From: a virus
Direction: 5' to 3' (one strand)
Length of the DNA: 64,000 nt
Virus record (IMG/VR): IMGVR_UViG_3300021513_000001
Location: 50,333 to 114,332 of that record
How positions within the stretch are numbered: position 1 is the first letter of the stretch; each line of letters opens with the position of its first letter. Positions 39,020 through 57,493 of the stretch are shown here, piece by piece. The position numbers and the translations under genes were made by a program. Under the pieces are notes generated by a model that worked only from the letters and a program-made list of their open reading frames with translations, was not told where the DNA came from and did no database searches.

Positions 39020-39036
39020 ATATACTCCAAAATACT

Positions 39037-42000
39037 TTATGTTTGTGAAGCAAATACACGTGCTGACCATGCTAAATCTTTAGCTTCTGCTACTTCTTCT
39101 CGTAGTTCATTAATCGCATTAGTAAACTTAGCACCCATAGTCCCCAAATTAGTTTGAAGTTGAACAAGAGCACTATCGTGATCATCTAACTTTTTATTTA
39201 TTAACTCAAATCCAGATTCCATTACCAAAACAGATGCTGTATTGTTAGCTACGTCTGTATCTAAATCTTCAACTAACCCTTTTAATTCTTTAATTGTTTC
39301 AGAACAACTAACTATTTCTTCTTTAAAAGCAATAAAATCAGTACTTTCTATTTCTTCTGTTTCTACTGGAACAGTATTTTTAATAATTTCAACATCTTCA
39401 GATAAAATTCTCGTCTTTTCAACTAATTCAGCTACTGTCTTCGAATCATTAGAAAGCTGATCTATGCTTTCAGATAATTCTTCTTTAACATTGTTTATCA
39501 AGTTTAATGCTTCCTCTTCAGAAATATATTCAACCACTTCTTTTTCTGCAGCTGCTGTCGGTCCTGATTCTTCTTTAGCTACATCAATTGTATTTATTTT
39601 AGTAGAAAGTGTATCTAACGAGATGGCTGTTTTAGACGCAGATTCTCCCAAATCGTCTATTAAATCTTTTGAAGACTTTGATGCCTCACCAACACTATTC
39701 ACGTTTTTTAAATTATCAGAAAGATCTACAAATAATTTATTAACATCAATAACTGATTCTTTTAACACCTCTATTTCATCTTTTAAGTTAGATACTTCTA
39801 TGTTTAACTTTTTGTTTTTCTTTAAAATTTCATCTGATTGCTTTACTTCTATATTTTTTTGACTATCTAGTTGAGCTTTTGGTTTCACTGCAAATTCTTT
39901 AATCTTATCTCTTTTAGTAGCAATCTCTTTACCTGCTTCTAGTACACTAGGTAAAAACGTTACATTTTTTTCTTGTTCCGGGTATGTAACAAACATTCCC
40001 TTTTTTTCCAAACTTTCCTTAATCTGTCTACGATTCTCCTCTTGAGAAAATTCTTGCCCAGGATACCTTACTGTAATTCCAGTCGTTTCAAAAAAACTTT
40101 TATATTTTTTTTGTCCTTCAGTTAATAAAGGCCGTTCATACGATGCGCCTACTTTATCTCTTTTATCAACAATTATAGGTTGTGATTTAACATTTTCACT
40201 TCTATTTATAGCATCAATAATACTTGCCCCAACATTTTCACCAGAAATAATTAATTTTCCTATATTATTTTTTATAGAATCCAAACGATCATTAGAAGGA
40301 GATATAGCACCCCTTATAGCTGTAGCATATTCTTCTGCCTGCACATCTCTAATCCTTTTTTCTTTAGCTTCCACCGCAACGCTTAAGTTTTTTTGTATTG
40401 CTTCTAAAGGCCCGCCCCTACCAATAAACGTACCAAAAGATCCTCCATATTTAGTAATATCCTCTCCTCTAGACGCTCTCTCCATTATATTATAAAGTTC
40501 CTTTGGATCAATTCCAGTATCTACTCCCTGTGCTCTCAAGCTTAAATTTTGACTATATAAATTTTTTGCAAGATCAAACTGCATACGCCTATCTGCTACC
40601 CTTTCTTGGGATAATTCTGACGTTCCTTGTCTTTTAGCCCATTTAGAAAAATCTATCTCTAAAGGCCTTATATTACGAGCACTCTCTATACCAGATAACC
40701 CTGTTTTTATAGAATCAATTATAGATTTCATCCCACTTACAGATTGCTGTAATGGTTCTAAAATCTTCCTTTTTTCTAACTCAAAAGTAGCACGCGCTTC
40801 CTTTTCTGCTTCATATACCTCAAGTAATTTTCTATTCCTTTCTTTTATTTCAGAAGGAACACGACCAAGCGTAGCTCTCAACTCGTTTTCTTCTCTTGTT
40901 ATTTGATCTAATGATTTACCCCTCCCAGCAGCAATATCCATTCGAGTCTGTTGTCTAATATTTGGAATACGTAATTTTTCTGCTTCTTTTCTAGCCTTAT
41001 CTTCTTCAACTAATGCCTTAGCTTGGTATTGTGAATAAAGTTTTTGTAGTTTTTCCAACCCCGGTGTTGTTTTATCAACAGCTTCTTCAGATTTTACATC
41101 AAATTCTGATCTTTTACCACTTGTACGTTCAACACCTTCTGCTGTTTTTGCAGTATTTTTTGCAATTTCATTTAAAACACTTATAACCGGCCCAAGCTCT
41201 ACAGAACCTGTTTCTAAAGCACCCTCAATCATACTATTTAATCTTTCATTAGATATGCCTTGTTGTTTAAGAAAGTCAACCTGTCCCATAATACCAGCCA
41301 TTATATCTGTTTTACTACGAACGGCTTTAACTTTTTCCAACTGTTTCAAATAAGAAATAGTATTTTCTCTATATTCTTGGTCTCTATTATATAATATCTC
41401 ATGAGGACTATATCTAGCAGTTGTAGATACATCAACTCCTATAGGTAAAGCTTCACGATATAAAGGCCCACCTTTTACATTCAATCTTTTAGCCCTTGAT
41501 TCAATAAGTTTTTGACTCTTTGCCGACTGCATATCTAAATTCTTAAAAGTAAATGAAAGATTTTCTACACTTTTAATAAGAGGATCAGTTACTTTAGTAA
41601 ACAAAGTAAAACTATTTATTATATTTTCTAAACTTTTACCAGAGTTGATTAATTCATCATTTAAATTTTCTATTTTTTCTTTATTTTTATTAGCGCTTAT
41701 TCCAATCTTTTCAAGTACTTCCTCCATAACTTTTTCCGGTGTTGCAATTTTGTTTGTAATAACACCAGTTTCAATTTTACTCTCCTTTTGTTGTCTCTTT
41801 TCTTCTTGTAACCCCTCAAAACGATTTTCAAGTAAATCAATAAACGTTCTTACTATTTTTTCATTATTTTTAATTCCAACACCAAAACCCATTGTGCTAA
41901 CTTCTTTACCGGCTATTTTTTCTTGTTCTGGTGTAAGTGTAGATGTTGGGTTGTATGGTAAATTTTTTGCAGTAGCAACGGCTGTAACAAGACCTGCCGG

Positions 42001-45000
42001 ACTAGGAATCATAATAGAAGGTAAAAGAACTTTTGTAAAATCAATCAGAGATTCACTATTTTTTAAACTTTCTTGTACTTCAGCTGGTGATTTTTTAGTA
42101 CTTTTGACAAGCGTAAGCGCTTCTTTAGAAGTAGCCTGTTCATAAATAGCCGACACATCATTAGGTGATAATTCCTTATACTTAGAACTTTGTTGTGCTG
42201 CTGTAACTAAATCACCAATACCGGGTATAGAAGAACCCAACTCAGTAACAGCTCTTATAAATAACTTGTTACCTTCCTTTTCGCCCAAAGTTTCTTTCAG
42301 TGCAGCAAGATATTCTTTAGTACCCTTTATATCCCTATTAGAAATAAAACGTCCTATATCTGCTTTAACCTTTAAACTTGCACCCCTTACAGCAATATCT
42401 CTATTAATCTCCCCTGTTTCTTTCATAGCCTGGGATAAAGCAGTTAATCCTGTAGGCTTATTACTCTCAAGAATAGTTTTAATATCACCAAGAGTATTTG
42501 CTGTTTTTTGTTCCAATTTAGTTTGTTTTTGTGTTTCAGTTAATAAAACAGCAGTTGATAACTCACCAGTCTTTAATATGTTTTCTGAAACGGCTGCAAA
42601 TTCTTTTTTATCAAACCCTTTCTGTTTAGATAAATCTTTTATATATTTTAAATCAACTTCAGCCGTAACAATTTTTTCCCCTCTTTTAACATATTTCATA
42701 TATTCTAATTCTTTTACATTATATTCTTTAGCTTTTTTTGCATATTCAGGTATAATAAAAGCCCTCTCAGCAATAGGTAATTCGCTCATTTTTCTCATAT
42801 TAATTTTTGGAGTAGGTATCAATTCCATACCAGCTAACGGTCCAGTTAAACGCTTCATAGTTCTTGTTCTAAATTTTTGTACAAGTTCCTGTTTTTCGTA
42901 AGTCACATCAATTTGTTCCAAAGCTTTCTTAAGATTCATAATAACACGCGCATCTTGTATAGCTACATTTGAAAGACCTGTTAAACTATTAATTAATTCG
43001 CTAATATTTTTAGATGTCTCTTCAGCAACATCACCGTGTTTTTCATTAACAGCAAGCGCAGCTTTTTGTGCTTTACGAACTTCTTCTTGACGTTTAACAT
43101 ATTCATTAATAAAGCCCATAGTTTCTTTAGAAAAAACCTTATAAGCATTATTTTGAATCAATATAGGAGTTTTAATTTGATAACGGTACATACTACCTAA
43201 CTCTAATTTTCCTTCTTTTATTGGTTTATACATACCAGCTTCAGCACCAACAAAATAACGAGATATTTTTCTAAGACGAACCTCTACATCAGTTAACATA
43301 CCTACAGCATTTATTACACCAATAAATTTATCAGAAATAACTGCTGTTTTCTTAAAATTTTCTAAAGTATCTGTAACAAATTTAAGCCCTTTTTCTTGAT
43401 TTTTACTAACTTCAACAGAATACTTAACCCATTTTTCACTAGCATCGCCTACACCTTTTTCAAAAACAGAAACCATATCGCCTAAATAACCTGAACCTTT
43501 CTTAAACATAAAAACATCTTTAGCTATAGCTTCTTCTAGTACGTTACGACGCTCCTCTTCAGTACTAACACCTCTAAAAGGAATACCCTGTTCCATTGCA
43601 GCTTGTTTTGTAAGTTCTGCAGAAGCCCTTATATTAACTCCACTAAGCCTTTGAGCAAAAGACGCTTGAATATCTTCAACAGATATTCCCTTATAAAACT
43701 GTTTATTTTTTTGCTGCTCTAGTTCAGCTAATGCCCTGCCTGTTGCTCCAAATGCAGCCTTGCCTGCAAGCTCTGGAGTCATACCAGGACCAGCCATTGT
43801 AAAGAAATCTCTTTTGATTTCTAAAAACTTATCATTAAACTCTGTCATAATATTAAGATGTTCTTTTTGTAATGCTGACCATCTTTTAAATCGATCCTCT
43901 TGTCTGCTGTACTCTTCTGGATTAATCTCCTTTAAACGTGTTAATGGAGCACGTATGATCTCCCCCTTCTGTCCAGCTTCATAACGCATTTTATTAATTT
44001 TTTCTGAAGAACGAATCATTCGTTCAAACAATGTTCTTCTTTTATCAGCATACTTTTCAAGAGATTTAAAACCAGTCATCTCTCCTAAATTACCAATACC
44101 TTCTCTAAACATGTATTGAAGTTTTTTCCAAAAACCTTTTATTTTTACAGCTTTCATCAAATCATCTAATTCTTCTTTTTCAATATGTAATTTTAAATTA
44201 ATCCTAGCATTGGCAGCAATCTCCTCAAGTTTAGCTATAACAGAATCTAACTTATCAGTCGATGAAACAATAGATTTACCAAATTTATCAAACCCAATAA
44301 AACCTTCAGAAGTTAAAGAAACAACAGCAGTAGCATATTCTCTAATGCTTTCTATCTGCTCTTTCTTCATTAATAATGGACTCTTGTACGATCTCCCTTT
44401 TACCTGACTAGCAATCTGTTCTTCAGTTAATTCTTCTAAAGCTTTTATTCTTCCACCTCTAATTTCTACTCTTGAACGTATCATCTTAACATTAGATATA
44501 GATTTTATTTTTTCCTCAACAACATCCAAAGCCTTTTTATAATCTTTAGTTCTATCCTCAGCAGAAGCAAAAGTTTTAGTCACAGCTTTATTAAACAAAT
44601 ACATTCCAACACCAAGTGACGCTATAACACTAATAAAAGTACCCAATGCCCCTAAAGAAGTCACTAACCCTAAAACAGAAAGAGATGCTTTACCTGTAGC
44701 TTTTACAAGAGAACTCATAGACTTTACAGATTTCTCTATCATAGCACCAGAAAATGCAAAGGAAGCACCAGAAACTAAACCCCTTCCAATACCAGACACT
44801 CTTGTTCCAACTTTTGGTAATAATGCCTTTGGAGACATCTGCCTAACCTTTTCAAAAACCTCTCTTCCTTTTTCTTGCTTCCCTCCAAATAGCGCCCCAA
44901 CAAGTTCTCTTGGTGTTCTTCGTTTTCTTTTAGCACCACCAATACTAGGCCCCAACAATCCAAACATTGACAAATCAAAATATTTACCAAGAGCAGTTGC

Positions 45001-48000
45001 ACCTAAATAAGCACTCGTACCAATAGTTGCTAAAGCACCACCATGTATGCCAGCAATTGCTTCAGTTACCGCTTTCAAAGAATCTGTAAGAGCTTTTAAC
45101 CCAGTTAAAATAGGCCCGCTAGCAGAAATAGCCAAAGCATTAAAAGAAGCCTTTAATTGAGCCGATTTCTTAGCTAAAGTCTCCATAACTAATTTATTTT
45201 CTTTTTCTGCCGACCCAACCGAATTAATACTAACAGCGCTAGCAGCCAAAGCTCTGTCATAATGCTCCATTAAAACCATAAGAGCATTATAATGTCGTAT
45301 ACCACCCATAGCTTGTGCTGTTGCTAATTTTTGAGCTCTAGTTAAACCAACCCATTTTTTAGCTAAATCATCTAAAACATCAGAACCTCTCCTAAGTCTT
45401 CCACCCTCAATAGTCTTAACACCAATAGCTGTTAATGCTTTTGGTGCTTTCTGTGTACCCATTCTTGAAAAAATAAATTTAAGAGATGTACCCACCTCCT
45501 TACCCGTTTGTCTTGTAGCTTCTCCAATTGCAGTAATAATACCATTAAGCTTATGAACACCTATACCCATTACCTTAGCAGCAGTACCAGCTTTTTTAAA
45601 ACCATCAGCTAAATCCTTTGCTGTTATAGCAAATTTATTTTCAACTTCATTCCAAGAATCAAGAATAGAAATAGACTTTTCACCTTCTATATTAAACTGT
45701 CTTGTAGCAGATGTTAATGCCTCAGCAGCCTCAGCCGGTTTCATTGTTGTAACATTTGCAGCAAGTGTAGAAACACGCGCCATCTCTTTTACTTGCTCTT
45801 GCGGAAGACCTTGCTGAGCAAATATACGCATAGTTTCAAACACACCTATTAACTCAGCACCATAGTCTTTAGCAAAACGAACAGCAGAATTTCGCATATT
45901 ATCAAAGTTAGTTGTAATAGGTGACATCACCTTCTTTAAATTGACCAAACCCGTTTCTGCTTGTTTCATTACTTCTATCATTTGTCTTGCGCCGCCTATA
46001 ATACCATATACCACTCCCGATGCAGCACCCCACAATGAAACCCTTCTAAGAACAGACCCTATTTGCCCCCCTCCTACTTCCTCCCTTTCAGATACCTTAG
46101 TTACTGGCCCAGCAAGACCAAAATACTTACCTCTAGCAGTAAGTCTTTTAGTTATAGCAACCTCTTCACCAGACTCTGTAAGAAGTTTACCTTTTATAAG
46201 CATAGACTTACCAATCTGATTAGCTCTTTTTAACTCCTCTTTTCCTTCTTCTATTCTTGAACGAAATGCAGCAAGTGAAGATTCCGGCGTCTCATAACCA
46301 CCCATTGTTATACCCTTGCGCGCAGCAATTGGAGTTTTAACTACTTTTTGATACATTCCCTGCGCTGCAAGCTGCGCCTGTTTATAAGCAGCACGTTCTT
46401 CTTCTGAAAGAATTACAGCACCGTTTTGTGCTTCTTTAAGCAACGCTATAATTTCTACTAAATCATTTTCAGCATTATCAAAATTTATAGCTTCTGTGTG
46501 TTTTCCAGCTTTTACCAAACCCACATCAAACTGCTTAACCCCAAGTAACATATCAGATATACGCTTATTAACGTCACCTGTTCCCTCCATAAACTTGCTA
46601 ACTAAAGTACTAGCGCGGGTTTTTTTATTTTTTTCTAATTCTCTTGCATATTCTTTAGCTGCTTTAGATTCTTGTTCTTCTATACCTGTAACAACACCAC
46701 CTTCACCAACAGCCTTAAGTTGTACCTGCCTTCTCTGCACAACCCCAGTAGTAAGAGGAACCGTAGCTGCAACTTTCATTGTTTTTCCAACAGCTAACGA
46801 AGCATCTTCCCACATAGCAGCTTTCTCTAATTCCACCTGTTTTCTAAATGCAGCTTCAGCTGATTCGGGAGTTTCCATACCCTTCATTATTATACCAGGC
46901 AATGCTTCTGGAGCTGTTTCTGCTACAGTACGAATAGCTGTTCCAATTTTTCTTTTTAATTGTGAAAATTCTACAAATTTTTCTGAACTAATACCTGGAG
47001 TTTTTATCATTTCGTTAAGAATCATCTGCATATCAGCTAAATCTTTAAGCGCTTCATCAAAATTAACAGTACCAGCAACATCATCAAATCTTTTTATACC
47101 AAGCCATACATCTTTTATTTTTTCATTTACATTTTTTGTTGAAGATTCGAATTCTTTTATAAGTCTAACAGCACGTCTACTTATTACTTCTTCCTTTTCT
47201 ACGGTAGGTTTCTCTTCTATTCTTTCAATTCCACCTACAACTCCTGGAGCATATAACCCCTCCTTTGCTCCTCTAGCAACAAGAGTAACTGTTCTCTTTT
47301 CAACCAGACCCTCTTCAGTAGGTATTTTAAAAGCAACTTTTCTTTTAGTCCCTACAACCAAACCCTTCTCTGCTAACATCTCTTTTTCATGCTTTTGTAA
47401 AAGAGCTTCAGCAGCAGCTTCTGCAGTTTCTCTGGTTTCTAATCCAGGTAAAACAAGAGTAGGCAATGCAGCGGCGTGGGTTTCTTGAACAGCCTTTTCC
47501 ATTTTAGTTACTTGCCTTACAGCATGTTCCAAATCAGAATACTCTTCCGGACTAAACATTCCATGAATTCTAAATGCTTTTAATTCTTCTTTAATTATTG
47601 CTAAATCTGCTTTCGCTTTTTCAAAATTAAAAGCTTTTCCACTTTTTGCTAACTCAGGATTAAATCTCCTTATTTCAGCCCACATAGTTTTTAAACGCTC
47701 TTCCATCCTTCCAGCCCCCATTAAAACAGGGGCTACAGCTTTTCCAGCGGTAGCACTTTGAACTTCTATAGCTTTTAATACTCTCTCCCTTTCATGTGGT
47801 ACACGATAAAGACCTAACTGCTCTACAGCTGCCTCATCTGCATACCCCAAAACCCTCCCACTTTCAGCCCTTTTCAAAAATGGAGTAGTTTTTTTACCAT
47901 AAGAACGAAGAATTACAGCTCCAGCCTTTCCTATAGCCTTTTCTCTTCCATAAATATCTCCAGCTTCTTCTGCCTGCTGAGCTATATCCGCTTCAGCCCT

Positions 48001-51000
48001 AGCTCTTTCTAAATGGTACTGAGCCCAAACAGTTTGTTGTTTAGGAAATGAAACACCCTTCATCGATGCTTTTAAAATTTCAGGAGCAACTAATGGAGAA
48101 ATCTCTTTAGCTCTCACAGCTTCAAGAACATTTAATGTTGGTTCTGGTAACCCTTCCTGAGTAAAACCAGTTCTCTTTTCAGCAGCAGCAATTAAATTCA
48201 TTAAAGCTTCTAATTTTGATTTATATTTAGGTTTTCCTCCCCCTGGTGGCACACCACCTGGAGGTATATTCCCTGGAGGTGCGCCCCCTGGCGGTACACC
48301 TGCTGGCGGTACACCTCCTAATGAAATACCAACTCTAGCAGCAAAATCAGCCAAACCTTCTTTTTCTAAAACTTTATAAGCTTTAACAGCCTTTTTCGCC
48401 TCAACCCCAAGTTCTGTTCCACCAGGTACAGCAGTCATCACAGACATGTTTTGTTTAATAAAAGTTAGAGCCTCTTGAATTTTTGCAATCTGTATATTTG
48501 TTAAACTTTTTGCCCCACCTAAAAGAAAATTTAAAGCTTCATTATACTCTTTTAACATATTAACTGCTTTTACAGCAGAAAGATCACCAAAAGCAGCATA
48601 ATCTATACCCTTAACACCGCCCTCTAATATTTCTCTTGCTCTATCTATTTTTGTTTCAGCTTTCTTTCCTGCGGTTAGTACTTCTATTTTCCCACGTTCT
48701 CTAACTAAAGCTTCCCGCTTCAATACAGTCTTTTCTGGTATATCTGGAACATCCTCTTCAGAAACATAACCATAACCTAATGGAAGCATTAACGGTCCTC
48801 TCGGAGGAATTTTCTTAGGCTTTTCTTTAACAAACAAACGAGCCTGCTCATACTTTGTCTTTACATCTGTTAATGGTTTCTCAGCAACTTTTAATGGCGG
48901 TGGCGCTGTCCCTATACTATATCCAGGAAACATAAATTGCTGTACATATTCTTCAGCTCTTTTTTTAGCCCTTCCTTTCTTTTTCTTAGTAAAAGCAGCA
49001 TATTCTTCTTCTTCAGCAACCTGTTTTTTATATTGTTCACCAACAATCGGAGAAATAGAAAACATCAAATCTTTTTTATACTCTGCCGACTTTACATATT
49101 GTTCAATCGCTTTTTTCCTATGTTGAAACAGGTATTCTTGTTGAAATTTTTCTATTTCTTCTTCTTTTGCTTTCGGGCGTTCTTTCTTAAATTTAGCAGC
49201 ACCCTCAGCCATAATCATTTCTTTTTCTTTCGTAGTAAGCCTTGGAACACCAAGCTTTTCTTCAAGAACGGCAACACCTCTACGTTTTTGTTTTGCAGTA
49301 GTCAAAGATTTAAATATTTTACCTAAATTAACACCAAATTTTTCCATTCTATTAAACATCGCAAACATATCCTTAAAAGCATCTTGCATCATAACATCTG
49401 ATACAGACACACCACTACCTGTTTGCTTGATAATTTCTAAAACTCTTATTATAGCTTTATCTAGGGTTGTTTTTCCTTTTTCTACTTGTTTGGCAAATTT
49501 TTCAACAGAGGCTGTAGAAGTTCTCAAAGAATAAAGAGGCTGCATTTGTGAAAAATATCTACCTAAATCTAATTCACCACTAGCAATTTGTTCCTCTATC
49601 ATAGCTTTTTGTTTTGGTGTCTTTGCAGTTTTTAAAACTTGATTTTGAATATCTTTAGCAGTAGCACTAAGAAAACCTTTAAAACTAAACTGATCAGCAT
49701 ACGCTTCTGTTATATCCTTACGTACCATCAATAGTTCTTTATCAGTTTTTCCCTTTGCTGTTTCAGGACTCATTCTCCGCACTTCTGATAAAAAATCTTC
49801 AGAATTTAAAGCATCTAACCTGTCTTTAATTGTAGTTTTTATTATTTCATTTGCTTTTAATATTCCCTTAAATCTTTCCGGTTCTTTCTGCATAGTAGCA
49901 AACAAAGTACCAGAAGCCATACCCTGCGTTACTTCCTGAAATATTGCCTTTCCACCGTGTTTTGCTGACATAGAGGCATTAATAACCTGTTCTAACAAAG
50001 CATTCATCATTGTTTGCATTTCACGAGCAGGTACAGCTTTTTGAACTAATTCGCCACCCTTTCCATACACAGCACCAAGAGCAACACTCTCAGGCTTCCA
50101 AGCAGCATACTCAGATTTAGTTACTTGTCTATCACCAAAACCTATGGAAGTTTCAATAATTCTCGCTAACCTGCTTATTGCTTCTGTTGATTCACCAAGG
50201 CCTGTTTTTACATACAGATTTTCATATTGCTTTGCACGAACTTTTTCATACAACATTTTTCTTGAAAAAGTCTCTATACCCTCTGCATCAACAATACCTT
50301 TTTTTTCAGCAATCTTAGATAAATGCCCTACAGTAATACCAAGATTCTTCAACCCCTCTAAAACATCAGGAGTAGTTAAATGTTTCATTTCTTCGGTTAT
50401 ATCGGGAGTTTTAAATATCTTAGCTCCAGGAATACCAGCCCTAGAAGTATACAAATCTGCAAGTTCTGCCATAGATCCTGTCAAACCAACTTCTTTATAA
50501 TTCATCATCTGATTAATAAAAGCTCTAGGATCTAAAGTACCAACTTTACCATATACACCTTTACGTGCAGCTTGATATTGAGCTTCTATTTCTTTTCTTG
50601 CTTTTTTTGTTTTAGCAGCATGAACATTAATTTCATCACCATCTAAATCTGCATTTTGAGCATAACCAGCAAACTTTACAGTAAGAAGATCTATAGCTTT
50701 AGACAACTCCATTATATTTTTAGTTAACTCGGCTCTTTGAGCATCTAATTCTTTTGCTTTTGCTGTACCCTTTTCTGCTATCGGTAATTCTGATCTTTCT
50801 TTTCTCAAAGATGCTTGTCTTAATTCAAGTTTTTCTTTGATTCTCTTCATCTCTTCAATATCAACACCAGGTGCTACACCACCAGGAATTGCAATAACAT
50901 CCCGCGCTCTTGGATGAACTAATTCCTTAGCAATACCAAATTGATGACTAGCAATACCAGTCATAGGAAATCTAGTAGTCATAACTGGAACATTTTGACC

Positions 51001-54000
51001 TTCTCTAACAGCATCTAAAAGAGTTTTCCCGGCCTTCCCATAATCACCAGTCAACTTTTCCATCTTTGCAGCAGGAATTCCTACCTCGCCCTCTCTTAAA
51101 ACAACAGCCCCGGCTTTTTTTTCTGCTTCTACTGCTTTCTCATGTTTTTCTGTTTGAGTTATAATCGAATTTACAAGAGTATTACCCAAAGATTTTGCCT
51201 TGTTTGGATCTCCTAAAACACCTTTTTCACTCAACCTATTTATTATTTCTGCTGCTTCTTTAAAATCTTCTACTTTACTGTTTATAGCTGCACTTAAAGT
51301 ACCACGTACAGCAGGCATAACTCTAGTTTGAAAAGATTCAACACCCTTTCCCTTACCTATAGTAGATTCAATTAAAGCTTTCTTTAATCTTTGCTTATCT
51401 CTCTCTATAAGCCTTATTTTCTCTTCTAAAGCTTGTTCTTTAACATCGGTAGTAACACCAAACTGTTTTGCAGCAACACCAAGAGCACCCTCACTAACAG
51501 AAAGTAATCCAGGCTTTTCAACACCAGCACTATATATATCTATACCGCGTTTTAACGCATTAGTAATCCACTCTCTAGCTTTCGGAGTCTCTTCCTCAAA
51601 ACCTTTCTCACCTATATCTGGTTTTTCTCTAGAACGTTTTTTATAATAAAAATAGGACTCAAGCTCAGTAAAAGGTTTGCCAGCCTTCATTCGTTCTAAA
51701 TCTCTTTCAAAACTTTCTATTTGTCCAACATCAATTTTAGGCTCCAACATATTATCTTTTACATTCATTAATAACCCAACAATACTTCTAGCTTCTTTCT
51801 TACCTAAACCTTTTCCAGCTTTAGATGCTTTTTCTAACAGAGATATTCCAGATCCAATCTTATTTAAAAGACTTCTAACAGGTGTCTTCATTGCTCCCAA
51901 ACCAACATCTCCAACAGCAGAAGCCTCTTTCAATATAATTTTTATTTTTTCAAAATAAGCTATCAGATTTTTTAAATCTTCATCCGAAACAGCAGAAGGT
52001 TGCTTAAAAGCTTTTGATACAACATTACGAAATACTGAAGAAGTCTCACCTATTTGGTCTTTAACATTTCTCCTTAAAACATCTACATTTGCTTTCTCGC
52101 CCTTTAAATATTTCGTCTTTTTTATCTTTTCATAATCTTCCACATTACTCAACAGACTATTATATAACACTGCTAACTTATTAGCACTAACTGCACCACC
52201 TTCTTCAGCATAAGCACCAAGACTTTTTCTAGACGGAATATATAATGGCCTTCTTCCTATTTCTTTTCCTTCTTCAAATTCTGGAACTTTAACAAAGCCA
52301 CCAGCTCCAAATTTCTCAATATCTAAAACAGTATCACGCAAATCTTTATATTTTGATATTACACCTGGTAATTCTCTAATACCTTTTGTAGATATGTATG
52401 GGGCTTTAGTCTTTACTGGTTCTTCTTCAAGAGTTTTCAAAGCAAATATGTTCTCTAAAGCAGCACCAGTATCCGGTTTATAACCGCCAAGTGTTTCTTG
52501 GACTACAGCAGATCCCTCACCAAATGTTGACATAAGAGCAGCCATAGCCGCTACGTTCAATTTTTGCCCTTTAATTCTTCTTTCTATTTGTTTTTGTGAC
52601 CACTCTTCATACCTAGAAGGCTCACGAGTATATCTCCAAAACTTCTGTCCTGCAATAACACCACCAGCACCTTTACCAGAATACATTGGTAAAGTTCTCT
52701 CTTCTATAGCAAATTTTTCTTCCGGCCCCCAACCATAACCCATGGCTTGTAAATATTTAGAAACCTCACCAGTTGAAGTAAGTTGTTCAGGTGTTAGTTT
52801 CGGAGCTATAGCACCTTTAACATTGCCTGCAATATTATTAATAACAACCTCCAAAGGTTCAGCTAAATTTAAACGTTTAGTTGCACCAGTAAGACTCATT
52901 CTTACTTCCGTCGCTATTTTTTCAGTCAGTGCTCCAGCACCAAGAATCTGCTTAGCTTTTTTTCTTCCCTTCTCTATAGACTCAGGAGTAGCAACTCTAA
53001 TATCAATATCTAAAATTTTCGAAACAGCATTTCTTATTTTTTCACATTTACTTTGAACCTCTTTTGATAAATCTTTATGCATAAATTCAACAAAAGGCAT
53101 TGTTCCAAGCTCATCCAAATCTGTAATAAGTTTATCTATCTCTTTATCTGTCTGTCTACTTACCCCTTTCTTTGTTTCAAGCATTTTTTGAATAAGTTTA
53201 TGATATGACGTAGCTTGCTCCACATAACCAAGCTCTCCTTCTTCTCCCTTCCCAAACTTCACTACACCCTTTGAACCATAGTGTGTCGTCATTTTGGTCC
53301 CTAAAGCAGTAAATAAGCGCTCAACAATTTTAACAGCAACTGCCTCTAAACTTTCCCCACCAGCACTGGTTAAAACTTTTGATATTTCACTAACCATCTC
53401 CCTTCCAGTCTCGCCTTCACCAACACCACCAATTCCAAAAGTTTTTCCAATATCTGGAGCATATTTTGATACTATATCTTTAGCTACAAGCTCTGCCCCC
53501 TCTACCCCACTTACATCTTTTATCATAGGTTTTATATATTTTGCAAACCTATTAACTGCTTTACCAGCTATTTCTATTTGATCTTCAAAAGTACCAGCAG
53601 AATCTTTTATAACTGTCTGCAAATTAAGACCATAGCCCCCTTCTCCCCACAAACCCTCTTTTTCTGCAGCACGCCCACGAATACTTTGCAAAAGAGGAGT
53701 TTCTAACTCACCAATCACCTTACCACCAAGAGCTTTACCTCCCCCTAATGCATGATATGTTGGTGCTAAAGTACGTGCAAAATTACTCCACTCGCCTAAA
53801 GGTATATACTCCCTAATATTACCAGCAAAAACATTCATTCTCATTCTAAAAGGATCTGTAACATCAGAAGCCAACTTAACTGATCTGCTTTCACCAACGC
53901 CTTGAGAACTTAAACGAAATTGTTTTCCAGATAACGCTAAATATTTTTCAATTTCCCTATTATGAGCAACCAACTGCTTGCGTTGTAGCTCTCCAGCTAC

Positions 54001-55728
54001 AATTTCACCACCAGCAGCTCCTGTCAATACAGGAACATTCAACTTTGAAGACTTGCCCTGATACCAAGAAAGCAGGGGTAAATCTTCTTCTACCAACTCC
54101 TGTTCAGTAAAAGGTTCTCTAACCCGCTTATTAAATGTCTTTACTGACTGTGTGCTTTCAGTTAAACCTTCACCTAAACTTTTAACAGTAGTTCTTAAAG
54201 GAGATGTTATACCAACAGATTCTTTAGTTAAAGTATCAAATAATCTATCATATATACTCGTTTTACTAAATTTACCCATAGCCACAAGAACATCATCAAA
54301 TCCTATTGCAGCTTTTTTAGCTTTATTTGCCAAATCATCTAAATATTTTAACTGCCCAACTTTGCTTTTTGGTATTTGCTGCGTTGGTTCTCTGCCATAC
54401 TTTGCAGACAATGTAGTTCTATAAGCATTTATTAATTCAAGTCTTCCTTTTTTATCTGTTTTCATTACATCCATAATACTAGATGCATGCTCAGCAAGAG
54501 CTGCTTTTTGATCTTCAACAATCATTTTTGGTAATTCAGGACTGATCTTTTGAACTTTTTGCGCAAGTGCTTTTTTACTCTCAATTTCTTTTCCACCAGT
54601 GCTTATTATATTTTCAGCCATCTTTTGAGCAACCATAATACCAGGAGTAAAACGATATTCTTGAGCTAAAGCCCTATACCTACCAGAAGGCATCTGCATA
54701 GCAGGCATACCTTGTGGTCCTTTTTGTGGACGTGGTATTTCTATTTCTTTAATTGCAGCTCCAATACGCTCATAAACACGAGAACGGCCCGCAGTCTCAC
54801 TTAATAAATCCATAAGACGTTCTTGAGAAACTGCTCCTCTTTTAGCGCCCTCTTCTCTTACAACTAAAGCTTTTCTTATCTGCTGTTCTGTTACACCTAA
54901 ACCTCTTGCTTGTTGTTTCTGTACTATCTGCTGTATACCCTTGTTTAGACCTTCATACCCGTGTTTGTTTATATATTCAGTAATCTTCGCTATTGATCGT
55001 TGTGTTCGTTCTGTTTTAGTTTTACCAAACTCACCAGAAAACTCCTCCATAGTAGCCCTACTAGCTTTAGTAACTAAAGCCTCTGCTCCTTTCTCTTTAG
55101 CCAGTTTAAGAGCCGCCTCCTCTGTAGTATTCGTTAACATTTTTAAGGCATTAACAAGAATACCAATATCAGCAATCTTTAAAACATCAACACCTCCACG
55201 TTTAGTATATTGTGCAGAACCCTTTCCAATAATCTGAAAAGATTCCCCATAAGCACTTACAAGTTGGGACTTTACTGTTTTTGCAAACTTAACCTTAAAT
55301 GATTCATAATCTTTCCTAATTTGATTCATCAAAACATCAGACGAATCAATAAGACTCTTTTTCTCTGCTACTTGTGTTACTGCAGGTATTATAGATCGTT
55401 CTTTTTTATACGGTAATACTTCTTTTGCTGGGGTTGTTACTATTCTTTTTTCTTTAGGTTGTTGTGTGATTACTTTAGATATCTCAGGACCAATATTTTT
55501 TACTGCTCCTGTTAATGCCCTATTTAAAGCTATCTCAAGTTCCTTTGCAATAGTAACTACCTGTTCTGAACTAGATGTTTTTAACTCACCTATTAAACGT
55601 GATATCTCAGCACTTTTCGATATTACTCCAGGGGATTCTATCTCTTTTGCTGCTTTAGTAGCAATTTCTCGTTCAGCAACATCAGTAATCTGCTTTATAT
55701 TTATAGAATATCTGTATTCTTCAGCCAC
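39037..55728 (-). CDS. Tape measure protein fused to an N-terminal two-barrel RNA polymerase (5,563 aa)
   Basis: Canonical tape measure position after tube and chaperones. TP901-type core at about aa 3218-3560 (AETGLVNLKKVM...FAQQG...LAANV...LTSATRQF...NKFAITAKDLADG...IGEATRQTGKEVGTSLKFIFSRM). Helical E/K/A-rich. Colinear RNAP motifs at about aa 714-1925. GTG start with AGGTG upstream. Confidence 0.9.
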   Translation of the reverse strand: MAEEYRYSINIKQITDVAEREIATKAAKEIESPGVISKSAEISRLIGELKTSSSEQVVTIAKELEIALNRALTGAVKNIGPEISKVITQQPKEKRIVTTPAKEVLPYKKERSIIPAVTQVAEKKSLIDSSDVLMNQIRKDYESFKVKFAKTVKSQLVSAYGESFQIIGKGSAQYTKRGGVDVLKIADIGILVNALKMLTNTTEEAALKLAKEKGAEALVTKASRATMEEFSGEFGKTKTERTQRSIAKITEYINKHGYEGLNKGIQQIVQKQQARGLGVTEQQIRKALVVREEGAKRGAVSQERLMDLLSETAGRSRVYERIGAAIKEIEIPRPQKGPQGMPAMQMPSGRYRALAQEYRFTPGIMVAQKMAENIISTGGKEIESKKALAQKVQKISPELPKMIVEDQKAALAEHASSIMDVMKTDKKGRLELINAYRTTLSAKYGREPTQQIPKSKVGQLKYLDDLANKAKKAAIGFDDVLVAMGKFSKTSIYDRLFDTLTKESVGITSPLRTTVKSLGEGLTESTQSVKTFNKRVREPFTEQELVEEDLPLLSWYQGKSSKLNVPVLTGAAGGEIVAGELQRKQLVAHNREIEKYLALSGKQFRLSSQGVGESRSVKLASDVTDPFRMRMNVFAGNIREYIPLGEWSNFARTLAPTYHALGGGKALGGKVIGELETPLLQSIRGRAAEKEGLWGEGGYGLNLQTVIKDSAGTFEDQIEIAGKAVNRFAKYIKPMIKDVSGVEGAELVAKDIVSKYAPDIGKTFGIGGVGEGETGREMVSEISKVLTSAGGESLEAVAVKIVERLFTALGTKMTTHYGSKGVVKFGKGEEGELGYVEQATSYHKLIQKMLETKKGVSRQTDKEIDKLITDLDELGTMPFVEFMHKDLSKEVQSKCEKIRNAVSKILDIDIRVATPESIEKGRKKAKQILGAGALTEKIATEVRMSLTGATKRLNLAEPLEVVINNIAGNVKGAIAPKLTPEQLTSTGEVSKYLQAMGYGWGPEEKFAIEERTLPMYSGKGAGGVIAGQKFWRYTREPSRYEEWSQKQIERRIKGQKLNVAAMAALMSTFGEGSAVVQETLGGYKPDTGAALENIFALKTLEEEPVKTKAPYISTKGIRELPGVISKYKDLRDTVLDIEKFGAGGFVKVPEFEEGKEIGRRPLYIPSRKSLGAYAEEGGAVSANKLAVLYNSLLSNVEDYEKIKKTKYLKGEKANVDVLRRNVKDQIGETSSVFRNVVSKAFKQPSAVSDEDLKNLIAYFEKIKIILKEASAVGDVGLGAMKTPVRSLLNKIGSGISLLEKASKAGKGLGKKEARSIVGLLMNVKDNMLEPKIDVGQIESFERDLERMKAGKPFTELESYFYYKKRSREKPDIGEKGFEEETPKAREWITNALKRGIDIYSAGVEKPGLLSVSEGALGVAAKQFGVTTDVKEQALEEKIRLIERDKQRLKKALIESTIGKGKGVESFQTRVMPAVRGTLSAAINSKVEDFKEAAEIINRLSEKGVLGDPNKAKSLGNTLVNSIITQTEKHEKAVEAEKKAGAVVLREGEVGIPAAKMEKLTGDYGKAGKTLLDAVREGQNVPVMTTRFPMTGIASHQFGIAKELVHPRARDVIAIPGGVAPGVDIEEMKRIKEKLELRQASLRKERSELPIAEKGTAKAKELDAQRAELTKNIMELSKAIDLLTVKFAGYAQNADLDGDEINVHAAKTKKARKEIEAQYQAARKGVYGKVGTLDPRAFINQMMNYKEVGLTGSMAELADLYTSRAGIPGAKIFKTPDITEEMKHLTTPDVLEGLKNLGITVGHLSKIAEKKGIVDAEGIETFSRKMLYEKVRAKQYENLYVKTGLGESTEAISRLARIIETSIGFGDRQVTKSEYAAWKPESVALGAVYGKGGELVQKAVPAREMQTMMNALLEQVINASMSAKHGGKAIFQEVTQGMASGTLFATMQKEPERFKGILKANEIIKTTIKDRLDALNSEDFLSEVRRMSPETAKGKTDKELLMVRKDITEAYADQFSFKGFLSATAKDIQNQVLKTAKTPKQKAMIEEQIASGELDLGRYFSQMQPLYSLRTSTASVEKFAKQVEKGKTTLDKAIIRVLEIIKQTGSGVSVSDVMMQDAFKDMFAMFNRMEKFGVNLGKIFKSLTTAKQKRRGVAVLEEKLGVPRLTTKEKEMIMAEGAAKFKKERPKAKEEEIEKFQQEYLFQHRKKAIEQYVKSAEYKKDLMFSISPIVGEQYKKQVAEEEEYAAFTKKKKGRAKKRAEEYVQQFMFPGYSIGTAPPPLKVAEKPLTDVKTKYEQARLFVKEKPKKIPPRGPLMLPLGYGYVSEEDVPDIPEKTVLKREALVRERGKIEVLTAGKKAETKIDRAREILEGGVKGIDYAAFGDLSAVKAVNMLKEYNEALNFLLGGAKSLTNIQIAKIQEALTFIKQNMSVMTAVPGGTELGVEAKKAVKAYKVLEKEGLADFAARVGISLGGVPPAGVPPGGAPPGNIPPGGVPPGGGKPKYKSKLEALMNLIAAAEKRTGFTQEGLPEPTLNVLEAVRAKEISPLVAPEILKASMKGVSFPKQQTVWAQYHLERARAEADIAQQAEEAGDIYGREKAIGKAGAVILRSYGKKTTPFLKRAESGRVLGYADEAAVEQLGLYRVPHERERVLKAIEVQSATAGKAVAPVLMGAGRMEERLKTMWAEIRRFNPELAKSGKAFNFEKAKADLAIIKEELKAFRIHGMFSPEEYSDLEHAVRQVTKMEKAVQETHAAALPTLVLPGLETRETAEAAAEALLQKHEKEMLAEKGLVVGTKRKVAFKIPTEEGLVEKRTVTLVARGAKEGLYAPGVVGGIERIEEKPTVEKEEVISRRAVRLIKEFESSTKNVNEKIKDVWLGIKRFDDVAGTVNFDEALKDLADMQMILNEMIKTPGISSEKFVEFSQLKRKIGTAIRTVAETAPEALPGIIMKGMETPESAEAAFRKQVELEKAAMWEDASLAVGKTMKVAATVPLTTGVVQRRQVQLKAVGEGGVVTGIEEQESKAAKEYARELEKNKKTRASTLVSKFMEGTGDVNKRISDMLLGVKQFDVGLVKAGKHTEAINFDNAENDLVEIIALLKEAQNGAVILSEEERAAYKQAQLAAQGMYQKVVKTPIAARKGITMGGYETPESSLAAFRSRIEEGKEELKRANQIGKSMLIKGKLLTESGEEVAITKRLTARGKYFGLAGPVTKVSEREEVGGGQIGSVLRRVSLWGAASGVVYGIIGGARQMIEVMKQAETGLVNLKKVMSPITTNFDNMRNSAVRFAKDYGAELIGVFETMRIFAQQGLPQEQVKEMARVSTLAANVTTMKPAEAAEALTSATRQFNIEGEKSISILDSWNEVENKFAITAKDLADGFKKAGTAAKVMGIGVHKLNGIITAIGEATRQTGKEVGTSLKFIFSRMGTQKAPKALTAIGVKTIEGGRLRRGSDVLDDLAKKWVGLTRAQKLATAQAMGGIRHYNALMVLMEHYDRALAASAVSINSVGSAEKENKLVMETLAKKSAQLKASFNALAISASGPILTGLKALTDSLKAVTEAIAGIHGGALATIGTSAYLGATALGKYFDLSMFGLLGPSIGGAKRKRRTPRELVGALFGGKQEKGREVFEKVRQMSPKALLPKVGTRVSGIGRGLVSGASFAFSGAMIEKSVKSMSSLVKATGKASLSVLGLVTSLGALGTFISVIASLGVGMYLFNKAVTKTFASAEDRTKDYKKALDVVEEKIKSISNVKMIRSRVEIRGGRIKALEELTEEQIASQVKGRSYKSPLLMKKEQIESIREYATAVVSLTSEGFIGFDKFGKSIVSSTDKLDSVIAKLEEIAANARINLKLHIEKEELDDLMKAVKIKGFWKKLQYMFREGIGNLGEMTGFKSLEKYADKRRTLFERMIRSSEKINKMRYEAGQKGEIIRAPLTRLKEINPEEYSRQEDRFKRWSALQKEHLNIMTEFNDKFLEIKRDFFTMAGPGMTPELAGKAAFGATGRALAELEQQKNKQFYKGISVEDIQASFAQRLSGVNIRASAELTKQAAMEQGIPFRGVSTEEERRNVLEEAIAKDVFMFKKGSGYLGDMVSVFEKGVGDASEKWVKYSVEVSKNQEKGLKFVTDTLENFKKTAVISDKFIGVINAVGMLTDVEVRLRKISRYFVGAEAGMYKPIKEGKLELGSMYRYQIKTPILIQNNAYKVFSKETMGFINEYVKRQEEVRKAQKAALAVNEKHGDVAEETSKNISELINSLTGLSNVAIQDARVIMNLKKALEQIDVTYEKQELVQKFRTRTMKRLTGPLAGMELIPTPKINMRKMSELPIAERAFIIPEYAKKAKEYNVKELEYMKYVKRGEKIVTAEVDLKYIKDLSKQKGFDKKEFAAVSENILKTGELSTAVLLTETQKQTKLEQKTANTLGDIKTILESNKPTGLTALSQAMKETGEINRDIAVRGASLKVKADIGRFISNRDIKGTKEYLAALKETLGEKEGNKLFIRAVTELGSSIPGIGDLVTAAQQSSKYKELSPNDVSAIYEQATSKEALTLVKSTKKSPAEVQESLKNSESLIDFTKVLLPSIMIPSPAGLVTAVATAKNLPYNPTSTLTPEQEKIAGKEVSTMGFGVGIKNNEKIVRTFIDLLENRFEGLQEEKRQQKESKIETGVITNKIATPEKVMEEVLEKIGISANKNKEKIENLNDELINSGKSLENIINSFTLFTKVTDPLIKSVENLSFTFKNLDMQSAKSQKLIESRAKRLNVKGGPLYREALPIGVDVSTTARYSPHEILYNRDQEYRENTISYLKQLEKVKAVRSKTDIMAGIMGQVDFLKQQGISNERLNSMIEGALETGSVELGPVISVLNEIAKNTAKTAEGVERTSGKRSEFDVKSEEAVDKTTPGLEKLQKLYSQYQAKALVEEDKARKEAEKLRIPNIRQQTRMDIAAGRGKSLDQITREENELRATLGRVPSEIKERNRKLLEVYEAEKEARATFELEKRKILEPLQQSVSGMKSIIDSIKTGLSGIESARNIRPLEIDFSKWAKRQGTSELSQERVADRRMQFDLAKNLYSQNLSLRAQGVDTGIDPKELYNIMERASRGEDITKYGGSFGTFIGRGGPLEAIQKNLSVAVEAKEKRIRDVQAEEYATAIRGAISPSNDRLDSIKNNIGKLIISGENVGASIIDAINRSENVKSQPIIVDKRDKVGASYERPLLTEGQKKYKSFFETTGITVRYPGQEFSQEENRRQIKESLEKKGMFVTYPEQEKNVTFLPSVLEAGKEIATKRDKIKEFAVKPKAQLDSQKNIEVKQSDEILKKNKKLNIEVSNLKDEIEVLKESVIDVNKLFVDLSDNLKNVNSVGEASKSSKDLIDDLGESASKTAISLDTLSTKINTIDVAKEESGPTAAAEKEVVEYISEEEALNLINNVKEELSESIDQLSNDSKTVAELVEKTRILSEDVEIIKNTVPVETEEIESTDFIAFKEEIVSCSETIKELKGLVEDLDTDVANNTASVLVMESGFELINKKLDDHDSALVQLQTNLGTMGAKFTNAINELREEVAEAKDLAWSARVFASQT
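46090..47710 (-). repeat. Three diverged internal protein repeats (about 175 aa each) in the tape measure polyprotein
   Basis: IRRF...FNFEKAKADL...GLETRETAEAA / IKRF...VNFDEALKDL...GMETPESAEAAF / VKQF...INFDNAENDL...GYETPESSLAAF. Confidence 0.8.
48235..48318 (-). repeat. Pro/Gly pentapeptide tandem repeat (about 5 x 15 nt), flexible linker
   Basis: GGVPP-AGVPP-GGAPP-GNIPP-GGVPP-GGG, a local GC-rich patch. Confidence 0.85.
49900..53650 (-). other. Two-barrel (double-psi beta-barrel) RNA polymerase core inside the tape measure ORF
   Basis: FED (aa 714-716), GTKMTTHYGSKGVV (810-823), KRLNLAEPLE (R952), GQKL (1054), GGAVSANKLAVLYNSLL, GKGKG...RVMPAVR (1469-1475), TTRFP (R1586), NADLDGDEINVH (1692-1703; nt 50620-50655). 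Confidence 0.85.
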
Positions 55729-55737
55729 CGACTACAC

Positions 55738-56757
55738 CTATCTTTTATTCCTTCTAATATTTAAATCAGTAGCGTTTTTATTTCTACGCGCTTCTTTTGG
55801 ATCATCATAATCAAGTTTATCATATAAATCATTAAATTGCGTTACAATTACCTCATCATTATCAAAAGCATTTGTACCCATCTTTTTTGACTTTGACACC
55901 AATCTATCTTGTTCTAAACTTTTATAATACTCTTGCATATAAGCATCTAATAAAACATCATTTTCTATCACATCGTCTGCCGGCCTGTCTTCAGGCAACA
56001 TTTCATAAATATTTTGATAAAAATTAGACCAATACATTAAAGCTATTTGATCTTTAGTATAATCATCTGGTTTTCTAGAAAAAAGAGGAAAAGAAGCCTT
56101 TACACTAGAAACATACCTAATTCTCCAGTCAGAGCTCCTAGCTAACTTGCGAAGAGTTTTTTCAGAAAATCCCACTAAAAATGTTAACACAATATTTACA
56201 ATTTTTGATCTAAAAGAAAAATTTTTTTCTGACTCAAAATCAGAATATCTATCCCACAGTCTATCAACACCAGATTCTTTATAGCAAGATGCCCAACATA
56301 AATAATTTATCTTTACCTCATTAGCTATATTTTCTGCTGAAAAAGAATAAAATCTATTAATTTTAGATCTCAATTCAAACAGCTCTGATTTTAATTTAAT
56401 TATATTTTCTTTAACTTTATTTTTTTTATCTTTAACAAAGCGCATCTTATCAAATAAAGCTTCTTGCCCCTCTATCCGCTTTATTAAATCTTGCTCATAC
56501 CTCTCATCCTTTTCTGTTACTAAACCACGTTTTCTTATTATTTTTTTAAGTTCATCTTTCGGTAATAAACCATTATCAATTGCTTCATTATAAGCAGATT
56601 CATACAAAAAATCAGAATATAGTCTATCAGCACAAAACGGATGAACTAAACATAAAACTATTTCCTCAGAATCAAAAAAAACCTTTGTATAATATTTAGC
56701 AGAAACAATAACATCAATAGCTGTAGATTCTCTAAGTTCATCTAAATTTATTGACAT
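55738..56757 (-). CDS. Tail assembly chaperone, long form (gpGT-like role), 339 aa
   Basis: Immediately upstream of the tape measure. Helical. N-terminal 200 aa paralogous to the 244-aa gene. Confidence 0.6.
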   Translation of the reverse strand: MSINLDELRESTAIDVIVSAKYYTKVFFDSEEIVLCLVHPFCADRLYSDFLYESAYNEAIDNGLLPKDELKKIIRKRGLVTEKDERYEQDLIKRIEGQEALFDKMRFVKDKKNKVKENIIKLKSELFELRSKINRFYSFSAENIANEVKINYLCWASCYKESGVDRLWDRYSDFESEKNFSFRSKIVNIVLTFLVGFSEKTLRKLARSSDWRIRYVSSVKASFPLFSRKPDDYTKDQIALMYWSNFYQNIYEMLPEDRPADDVIENDVLLDAYMQEYYKSLEQDRLVSKSKKMGTNAFDNDEVIVTQFNDLYDKLDYDDPKEARRNKNATDLNIRRNKR

Positions 56758-56758
56758 T

Positions 56759-57493
56759 TTATTTCTTTATTTTTTCATTTTTTGTTTTTTTCTTTACGGT
56801 TTTATTTTTTTCTGTTCCAACATCTTTATCAGATATTTGCTTCATTTTTTTATTTTCTTTATCTTCGTCAGAAACTTTATCAGTAGTTTCTTTTTCATTT
56901 TCTTCTTTTTTATTTTCAATATCTTTTAAAACCATAGCTTCAGGAACAGTATCTAAAAAATCAGAATCTAAACCCTGCAAATAAAGCATCACTTCAAATT
57001 TTGCACGTGTTTGTAAAACTTGATCTGTTTCATTAAGAAAAGCATCATAATCCTTCCAAACAAGCTCTCCGTTATCAGATACAACAATACAGCTTGTCAA
57101 AAACTCAAGCTTAGCATCGTCAGCAATCTGTTCACAGGTATTGCTCATAGGACCATTAAGCCTATGATTCCACTGAAAAATTTCGTTTCTAATGTTACCT
57201 GTTTCTTCAGCAGCTTTCTGCCTATCTTCATCAGAATCGGCTGAATACATTTTACTAATAGAAGCCTCTAACATGTCAGTCAACTCTTGAGAACGTTTAT
57301 CGTATTCTGGTCCAATAATTCCACGTTTTTTTAAGATGTCTCTCATTTCAGAAGCAGTATAAATACCTTCAACAAGAGATTTTGAATAGACTTTACTATA
57401 ATTCCAATCTGAGTTTCTTATATTTGATGCGGTTGGCTGATTAATATAATATACATTACCATCTACTGTAAAACTTCTTCTTTCTATATCCAT
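56759..57493 (-). CDS. Tail assembly chaperone, short form (gpG-like role), 244 aa
   Basis: Between the tube and tape measure genes. Strong AGGAGG RBS. RRSFTVDGNVYYINQPT N-terminus. Charged low-complexity tail. Confidence 0.6.
   Translation of the reverse strand: MDIERRSFTVDGNVYYINQPTASNIRNSDWNYSKVYSKSLVEGIYTASEMRDILKKRGIIGPEYDKRSQELTDMLEASISKMYSADSDEDRQKAAEETGNIRNEIFQWNHRLNGPMSNTCEQIADDAKLEFLTSCIVVSDNGELVWKDYDAFLNETDQVLQTRAKFEVMLYLQGLDSDFLDTVPEAMVLKDIENKKEENEKETTDKVSDEDKENKKMKQISDKDVGTEKNKTVKKKTKNEKIKK

Follow-up and report, generated by a model that had tools for sequence, protein, structure and literature searches.

A candidate single-chain RNA polymerase module within the tape measure protein of a hydrothermal-vent phage

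Tape measure proteins fill the lumen of the phage tail and are the first to leave it at infection. In the Thermus phage P23-45, the tape measure protein gp96 has 5,002 residues, of which the N-terminal ~1,100 are a two-barrel RNA polymerase (RNAP) (PMC10770324). gp96 is present in virions, is active in vitro and was found bound to pre-early genes, which the fused enzyme transcribes; its RNAP is described as flat and clamp-less, and a paralogous non-virion RNAP, gp64, takes over after it (PMC10770324). Here we describe a 64,000-nucleotide stretch of DNA (hereafter the window), positions 50,333 to 114,332 of the IMG/VR virus record IMGVR_UViG_3300021513_000001, in which one open reading frame (ORF) encodes a protein of 5,563 amino acids (aa) with an RNAP-like module ahead of a tape-measure core. 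A preliminary description of the window named no characterised protein of this kind. As gp96 is such a protein (PMC10770324), the novelty is lower than was then estimated: the concept is already known, and what is, as far as we searched, undescribed is a distinct and widespread lineage. For other families of tape-measure-fused RNAPs, the literature we searched holds only the P23-45 paper and works citing it, which report no family like this one, within a limited library in which absence is no proof.

The window protein resembles gp96 (also found in phages P74-26, G20c and TSP4) in general layout: an ORF of ~5,000 aa, a single-chain two-barrel RNAP with DxDGD before the tape-measure part, and membrane-type segments further on. 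Some relatives of the window's phage also carry a standalone RNAP paralogue, comparable to gp64. Unlike gp96, however, the protein described here begins its RNAP not at residue 1 but after an N-terminal region of 640 aa; it has a PF10145 core and no detectable metallopeptidase domain. At the sequence level the two proteins are not detectably similar (best BLASTP E 0.11), and an hhalign comparison of gp96 residues 1-1250 with profiles of the family to which the window protein belongs gave no significant match beyond the generic DxDGD region. The cellular motif GxKx3(R/H)xGxKG is kept here, whereas a motif scan of the first 1,300 residues of gp96 did not find it, and in contrast to the clamp-less gp96, our structural model aligns with residues 24-497 of the bacterial beta' subunit, including clamp-type elements. 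The setting also differs, as the phages described here are low-GC, come from hydrothermal vents rather than from Thermus and have relatives with genomes of 230-270 kb.

A giant open frame and its tape-measure core

The ORF occupies window positions 39037..55728 on the minus strand as a single uninterrupted frame of 5,563 codons, with a GTG start and without an internal stop. Its start coincides with the equivalent residue in close homologues from other samples, and self-BLAST at E 1e-3 found no internal repeats in the 5,563-aa protein. We divided the protein as follows.

39037..55728, minus strand: whole ORF, predicted tape measure protein with an embedded RNAP module, seen in an independent contig and in full-length homologues
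53812..55728, minus strand: N-terminal region (aa 1-639), without a known family, kept in close homologues
49429..53811, minus strand: predicted RNAP module (aa ~640-2100), its outer limits placed by conservation and by the match to a standalone paralogue
46072..49428, minus strand: linker (aa 2101-3219), without a known family, with a Gly/Pro-rich stretch at aa ~2470
40888..46071, minus strand: region resembling tape-measure profiles (aa 3220-4947; phrog_4211, E 1.2e-73; phrog_14917, E 4.5e-65)
45301..45879, minus strand: PF10145 core (PhageMin_Tail, TP901-type; aa 3284-3476), from Pfam
44581..44688, minus strand: strongly hydrophobic, membrane-type segment (aa 3681-3716), from a Kyte-Doolittle scan

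The tape-measure part is recognisable by direct profile similarity. PF10145 matches aa 3284-3476 with E 4.7e-28 and 98.9 bits (cut-off 33.2), which bears out the TP901-type core that the preliminary description had placed at about aa 3218-3560, and the PHROG tape-measure profiles align over aa ~3220-4947. C-terminal to the core lies the hydrophobic segment (mean hydropathy 2.05), a feature typical of tape measure proteins. PF10145, the PHROG profiles and this segment together mark the 5,563-aa protein as a genuine tape measure protein. In aa 2501-5563, Pfam searched at E<=0.1 gave PF10145 and one weak unrelated match only, with no metallopeptidase domain.

The continuity of the frame could be followed in independent data. 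The DNA stretch is present in several hydrothermal-vent and marine-sediment sequencing runs, with no RNA run among those listed for it. One contig of 22,926 nt, assembled from an independent run of a different study from that of the probable source run, covers positions 41009-55738 and thus reaches across the RNAP module, the linker and the tape-measure core. It matches the window at ~97% identity, with 423 substitutions, mostly transitions, and zero gaps, and no insertion or deletion in the stretch was reported in any run examined. The uninterrupted ORF of the preliminary description, whose continuity it had marked for checking, is therefore upheld, as is the fusion itself: PF10145 and an RNAP-like module lie in one ORF, an arrangement kept in many independent assemblies.

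Polymerase motifs, fold and paralogue

Ahead of the tape-measure core, the protein carries an ordered series of motifs of the kind found in the two large subunits of cellular RNAP, beta and beta'. Every motif quoted in the preliminary description was found, in the order given there, between aa 713 and 1703.

53569..53592, minus strand: TFEDQIEI (aa 713-720), compare beta NFEDS; E715 and D716 invariant
53260..53301, minus strand: GTKMTTHYGSKGVV (aa 810-823), compare beta GDKMAGRHGNKGV; K812 and K820 invariant
52849..52896, minus strand: SLTGATKRLNLAEPLE (aa 945-960), compare beta PLGVPSRMNIGQILE; R952 invariant; hhalign E 0.003
aa 1053: KGQKLNVAAMAAL, beta-type motif
aa 1177: GGAVSANKLAVLYNSLL, beta'-type motif
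aa 1457: IGKGKG, beta'-type motif
aa 1469: RVMPAVRG, beta'-type motif
aa 1547: GEVGIP, beta'-type motif
aa 1584: TTRFP, beta'-type motif
50620..50655, minus strand: NADLDGDEINVH (aa 1692-1703), with the predicted metal-binding aspartates D1694, D1696 and D1698

K812 and K820 are spaced by 8 residues, as are K1065 and K1073 of E. coli. NADLDGD (aa 1692-1698) is invariant across the family, and in alignments down to ~25% identity the invariant residues include E715, D716, K812, G818, K820, G821, R952, R1586, P1588, D1694, D1696, G1697 and D1698. The DLDGD and the two lysines, whose conservation in homologues had been proposed as a check, are thus kept at this distance. Because the motifs are invariant or nearly so among relatives at ~25% identity, they are not a product of chance. 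As aligned, the invariant residues are those that define the RNAP active centre.

The family is large and lies outside the sequenced phages of GenBank. A word-indexed search yielded eight clusters (seven in addition to that of the window protein); every one of them carries PF10145, and across the RNAP region identity is 49-63% for four of them. When 1.84 billion representatives were searched exhaustively with phmmer, 57 clusters emerged, 44 of them at E<1e-10 and most with proteins of 5-8 thousand residues; cellular RpoB and RpoC were not among these 57. In nearly all full-length members, FEDQ is followed ~100 residues on by G(R/T)K...G(S/T)KG and ~1,000 on by D(F/Y/L/I)DGD. When IMG/VR was scanned with a single sequence there was no match, and an alignment-driven scan, which took the FEDQ, lysine and DxDGD motifs themselves as patterns, returned 47 loci on contigs of up to 268,764 bp, with the match inside a giant open frame in each locus checked. 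The relatives for which precomputed Pfam data exist carry PF10145, so ORFs that combine the tape-measure domain with DxDGD, for which a search had been suggested, do recur. No relative was found by tblastn against 50,697 GenBank phage records.

Some relatives show variations on this layout. Two distant members of 7.0-7.3 thousand residues (P0007 and P0009) have a DEDD/RNase T-type exonuclease (PF00929) ahead of the RNAP module, at a place where the window protein has an unrelated N-terminus of 640 aa. The DxDGD frame of another relative (L090, at G036:C1:106520-109600, on a 256,335-bp record that is 97% complete) is reported as 12,316 aa, compared with 5.5-8 thousand elsewhere. At L029:10001-13672 (plus strand), an otherwise open frame of ~4,700 codons contains TAG twice in frame but neither TAA nor TGA; recoding or suppression may account for them in that phage.

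Direct comparison with RNAP families found little. PF00623 was the only direct Pfam RNAP match, placed over DxDGD with E 4e-4 for the protein; it scored 24.5 bits in a genome-wide search, or 26.2 with in-frame neighbours (cut-off 25.3), and matched 19 of 34 family members at E up to 1. The Pfam models Rpb2_6 and Rpb1_1 had no match in the phage's own genome, and a phmmer search of aa 600-2200 against PDB sequences had none either. Comparison of the family profile with PDB produced coiled-coil noise only, with Rpb1 and RPC1 at E ~1.

We therefore describe the two halves of the module by structure prediction and by profile comparison, as listed here; DPBB stands for double-psi beta-barrel.

52429..53631, minus strand: beta-like half (aa 700-1100), DPBB-B region; hhalign to the standalone RNAP, E 1.4e-17, and collinear RpoB-profile matches
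50539..52428, minus strand: beta'-like part (aa 1101-1730), clamp-like N-terminal elements and DPBB-A; VIA-align Z 11.5-12.1 to Rpb1, A190, C160 and beta'
49759..50151, minus strand: conserved region after DPBB-A (aa ~1860-1990; VKTG..ISRLAR.., ..KHGG..); hhalign to the C-terminal part of the standalone RNAP, E 4e-4

An AF2 model of aa 700-1730 was built from a 39-sequence alignment, an earlier model from 8 sequences having been too poor for use (predicted local distance difference test, pLDDT, of 57). The later model has a pLDDT of 78.5 and a predicted template modelling score (pTM) of 0.48, and most of aa 1140-1725 lies above 80. Structure searches covered model residues 402-1031 only. Against a set of 48,161 representative chains, VIA-align placed largest subunits at ranks 1-8: Pol I, Pol IV, archaeal RNAP, Pol II, vaccinia virus, African swine fever virus, fission-yeast Pol I and Pol III (Z 10.5-12.1, 217-272 residues aligned, root mean square deviation 4.1-5.1). 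Lower ranks included Mycobacterium tuberculosis beta' (Z 9.9), the non-virion RNAPs of AR9 (Z 9.6) and phiKZ (Z 8.8), QDE-1 (Z 9.4) and P74-26 gp62 (Z 8.7), and designed DPBB proteins aligned to model residues 773-1006 with Z 8.9. When the 1,000 best Foldseek chains were re-checked with VIA-align, all of the top 50 were Rpb1, A190, C160 or beta'. Residues 24-497 of E. coli beta' aligned with Z 12.0, and an isolated archaeal clamp construct (3qqc_A) with Z 9.6, in each case to a predicted model with the pTM given above. Helical bundles are inserted at aa ~1215-1415. Because of these VIA-align matches, we assign aa ~1100-1730 to the N-terminal third of beta'/Rpb1: as modelled, this part has that fold, with clamp-type elements and the catalytic barrel. 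The model suggests that clamp-like elements are present in the polymerase module. The conserved region at aa ~1860-1990 is a candidate for the equivalent of the bridge helix and trigger loop.

The beta-like half was approached through profiles. A search of the ESM Atlas with this half gave no usable match. In an hhalign comparison with an RpoB profile built from 14 bacterial genomes, the family profile matched at NFEDS (E 0.42), at GDKMAGRHGNKG (E 0.021) and at PLGVPSRMN (E 0.003); these three matches are in the right order, and while each is weak alone, their weight lies in the collinearity. An archaeal profile matched the lysine motif with E 0.0022.

A further route led through a paralogue. 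In three relatives with near-complete genomes (G032, G033 and G035, the first being 268,764 bp long and 100% complete by CheckV), a standalone RNAP of ~1,100 aa lies beside the giant ORF (L094:2215-5541, minus strand; L095:826-4089, plus strand; and L096:495-4034, plus strand). The standalone RNAP carries the motifs WEDQ, K.T..(S/A/G).NKG, FPC and LDFDGD and matches PHROG families annotated 'RNA polymerase beta subunit' (E 7e-7 and 3.5e-6). With hhalign, the profile of the fused family aligned to it with 98.9% probability and E 1.4e-17 over 422 columns of the beta-like half, and with E 2.6e-5 over the catalytic barrel. This chain of homology via the standalone paralogue ties the beta-like half to RNAPs, and the sequence comparison suggests that the RNAP module reaches ~aa 2100. 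Of the complete two-barrel enzyme announced in the preliminary description, then, the beta'-like barrel stands by its fold; the beta-like barrel was recovered through motifs and paralogue homology, and not as a fold.

We also looked at other polymerase-like frames. A tblastn search with the relatives' standalone RNAP had no match in the phage's own genome. The sole other DFDGD ORF in that genome (C1:15105-17561, minus strand) was considered as a polymerase and rejected, as it is a glycosyltransferase split by an intein; the intein, which lies outside the window, has a LAGLIDADG endonuclease and matches PF14890 and PF14528. A 1,158-aa frame in a Woesearchaeota-labelled metagenome-assembled genome (MAG) (L059, G003:C9:4432-7818) matches PF00562 (Rpb2_6) at 32.3 bits, weakly but above the cut-off. 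This frame is distinct from the rpoB of the MAG itself and may encode a further divergent RNAP, possibly of viral origin.

Genome setting

The IMG/VR record to which the window belongs, as its right-hand 64 kb, is linear, 114,332 bp long and by CheckV estimate 54% complete. GC content is ~30%, and almost all genes lie on one strand. The ORF is flanked by the following genes.

55738..57493, minus strand: two upstream ORFs of 244 and 339 aa, in the usual tail-assembly-chaperone slot by position only
37004..39070, minus strand: downstream ORF of 688 aa overlapping the end of the 5,563-aa ORF, in the distal-tail-protein slot by position only

Further downstream, Ig-like, lectin and reelin-type domains occur in proteins of the kind expected at tail tips and fibres. 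The gene order is compatible with placement of a tape measure gene here, in a neighbourhood whose immediate members have no family match; because they have none, the 'tape measure slot' is drawn only from position and from similarity to PF10145 and the PHROG profiles.

In an independent vent sample that is otherwise collinear at ~97% identity, ~155 extra letters stand at window 55728-55738, precisely in the gap that separates the upstream gene from the start of the 5,563-aa ORF. A LAGLIDADG homing endonuclease ORF (PF03161, E 5e-25) is located upstream of the tape measure gene, at window 59535-60374 (minus strand), with an ORF on either side. Downstream of the tail genes come five consecutive giant ORFs of 2,362, 3,320, 1,736, 2,479 and 1,617 aa (window 3-20223, minus strand, and C1:35937-53451, minus strand), and neither Pfam nor PHROG matched the 2,362-aa and 3,320-aa ORFs or the part of the 1,736-aa ORF that lies in the window. 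The other arm of the genome encodes RecA, DnaB, a PD-(D/E)XK nuclease, a radical SAM enzyme and glycosyltransferases. Only three MAG contigs carry relatives, and because these contigs belong to three unrelated groups, two bacterial and one archaeal, they offer no clue to the host.

Relation to other polymerases, proposed role and alternatives

Multisubunit RNAPs (bacterial beta/beta' and Rpb2/Rpb1) are the best structural matches to the module, with Z ~12, and share with it the same ordered motifs: the ED pair, the two lysines, SR..LE, R.P and NADxDGD. They differ in that the enzyme described here is a single chain with the beta-like part first, is much reduced, has large helical insertions and is fused to a virion protein, and in that Pfam RNAP models are reached only around DxDGD. 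The single-chain RNAPs (SPbeta YonO, crAss-like phi14:2 gp66, QDE-1 and P74-26 gp62/P23-45 gp64) likewise hold both barrels in one polypeptide, but score structurally below the multisubunit enzymes (QDE-1, Z 9.4; P74-26 gp62, Z 8.7). Among them, phi14:2 gp66 is also a virion enzyme within a very large protein; unlike the protein studied here, it is a capsid-packaged protein of a podovirus and not a tape measure. It is possible, and we offer it as a tentative view, that the lineage represents a second fusion, either independently arisen or very anciently diverged from that of P23-45, with a polymerase nearer to cellular beta/beta', clamp included, than other single-chain phage RNAPs are.

We consider it likely that the protein is a tape measure with a single-chain two-barrel RNAP (aa ~640-2100) that is ejected and transcribes the first-entering genes independently of the host enzyme. 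Along the chain, the predicted order is the beta-like part, the beta'-like part and then the tape-measure core (aa ~3220-4950). As expected of its family, the protein would occupy the tail lumen and be ejected at infection, and because tape measure proteins fill the lumen and are ejected first, the polymerase would be delivered with or ahead of the DNA. By analogy with P23-45 gp96, the RNAP part would transcribe the first genes to enter the cell without host RNAP; in relatives with the paralogue, the standalone enzyme of ~1,100 aa would probably take over afterwards. The phage, in short, probably injects its own transcription enzyme.

Several points weigh against this proposal. The phage is uncultivated, and the case was built by computation alone. 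Direct sequence similarity to RNAP families is weak and confined to the DxDGD region, and when PDB and BFVD were searched with Foldseek, nothing reached E<=1e-3; its top PDB rows were dominated by RNAP beta' chains, though none at that threshold. In the model, the loops bearing the beta-like motifs have a pLDDT below 50, too low for the model to place the lysines relative to the aspartates in three dimensions. The genes flanking the 5,563-aa ORF have no Pfam or PHROG match. The standalone paralogue was found in only 3 of 17 relatives' records with a single-sequence search, and a second RNAP was not found in the 114 kb available of the window's own genome, which is 54% complete. Finally, the model suggests clamp-like elements; these would make the enzyme bulkier than the flat gp96 RNAP and raise the question of passage through the tail tube.

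We weighed four other explanations. That the fusion is an assembly chimera, or hides a missed stop or frameshift, has next to no probability: the IMG/VR record is a single metagenomic contig, but a gap-free contig from an independent run crosses most of the ORF and dozens of independent assemblies keep the same open frame, and on the strength of that 22,926-nt contig and the many independent giant frames we rule it out. Far-fetched, if less so, is the idea that the RNAP-like region is an inactive relic with a structural role in the tail or in ejection. The very low direct sequence similarity to RNAPs and the low confidence with which the beta-barrel motifs are modelled would fit a relic, whereas relatives at ~25% identity keep every metal-binding aspartate, both lysines, the ED pair and the R..P motif unchanged, and invariance of catalytic residues at this distance is the pattern expected under selection for catalysis.

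The remaining two explanations concern the role of the protein. It is quite unlikely that it is no tail-length ruler but a capsid-internal or otherwise ejected protein with a tape-measure-like domain. The flanking genes do lack recognisable tail families, and the genome has five further giant ORFs of unassigned role; against this, the PHROG tape-measure profiles align over ~1,700 residues, beyond the core alone, the hydrophobic segment after the core is what tape measure proteins typically have, and downstream genes encode Ig-like and lectin domains, which tail tips and fibres typically have. We also think it unlikely that the RNAP is active with a main job other than early expression, such as transcription-driven genome entry at the tape-measure pore or the making of replication primers. 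Genome pulling would suit an enzyme attached to the presumed entry-channel protein (PMC10770324), and the very large genomes of the family (up to 269 kb) may need active entry. Such a job is, however, compatible with early transcription by the injected enzyme, and the fused enzyme of P23-45 does transcribe pre-early genes. Delivery of an early-transcribing RNAP on the tape measure protein remains our preferred explanation.

In their 2024 work on P23-45, Chaban et al. described the fusion of a virion RNAP to a tape measure as a curiosity of a single Thermus phage group (PMC10770324). The lineage described here is separate from it and much larger, with dozens of metagenome clusters, genomes of up to ~270 kb, ORFs of up to 8-12 thousand residues and no GenBank phage. 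Its cellular-type motifs make the enzyme a compact single-chain model of the beta/beta' core, and it poses the question of how a polymerase domain of ~1,400 residues passes inside or through the tail tube. Should the tentative view of a second fusion hold, the enzyme could be a link between the multisubunit RNAPs and the reduced single-chain enzymes of phages and plasmids, and it would follow that a clamp-bearing polymerase can be threaded along a tail tube and regain its fold at the cell envelope. The breadth of the lineage suggests that large uncultivated phages recurrently use the tail ruler to deliver a polymerase.

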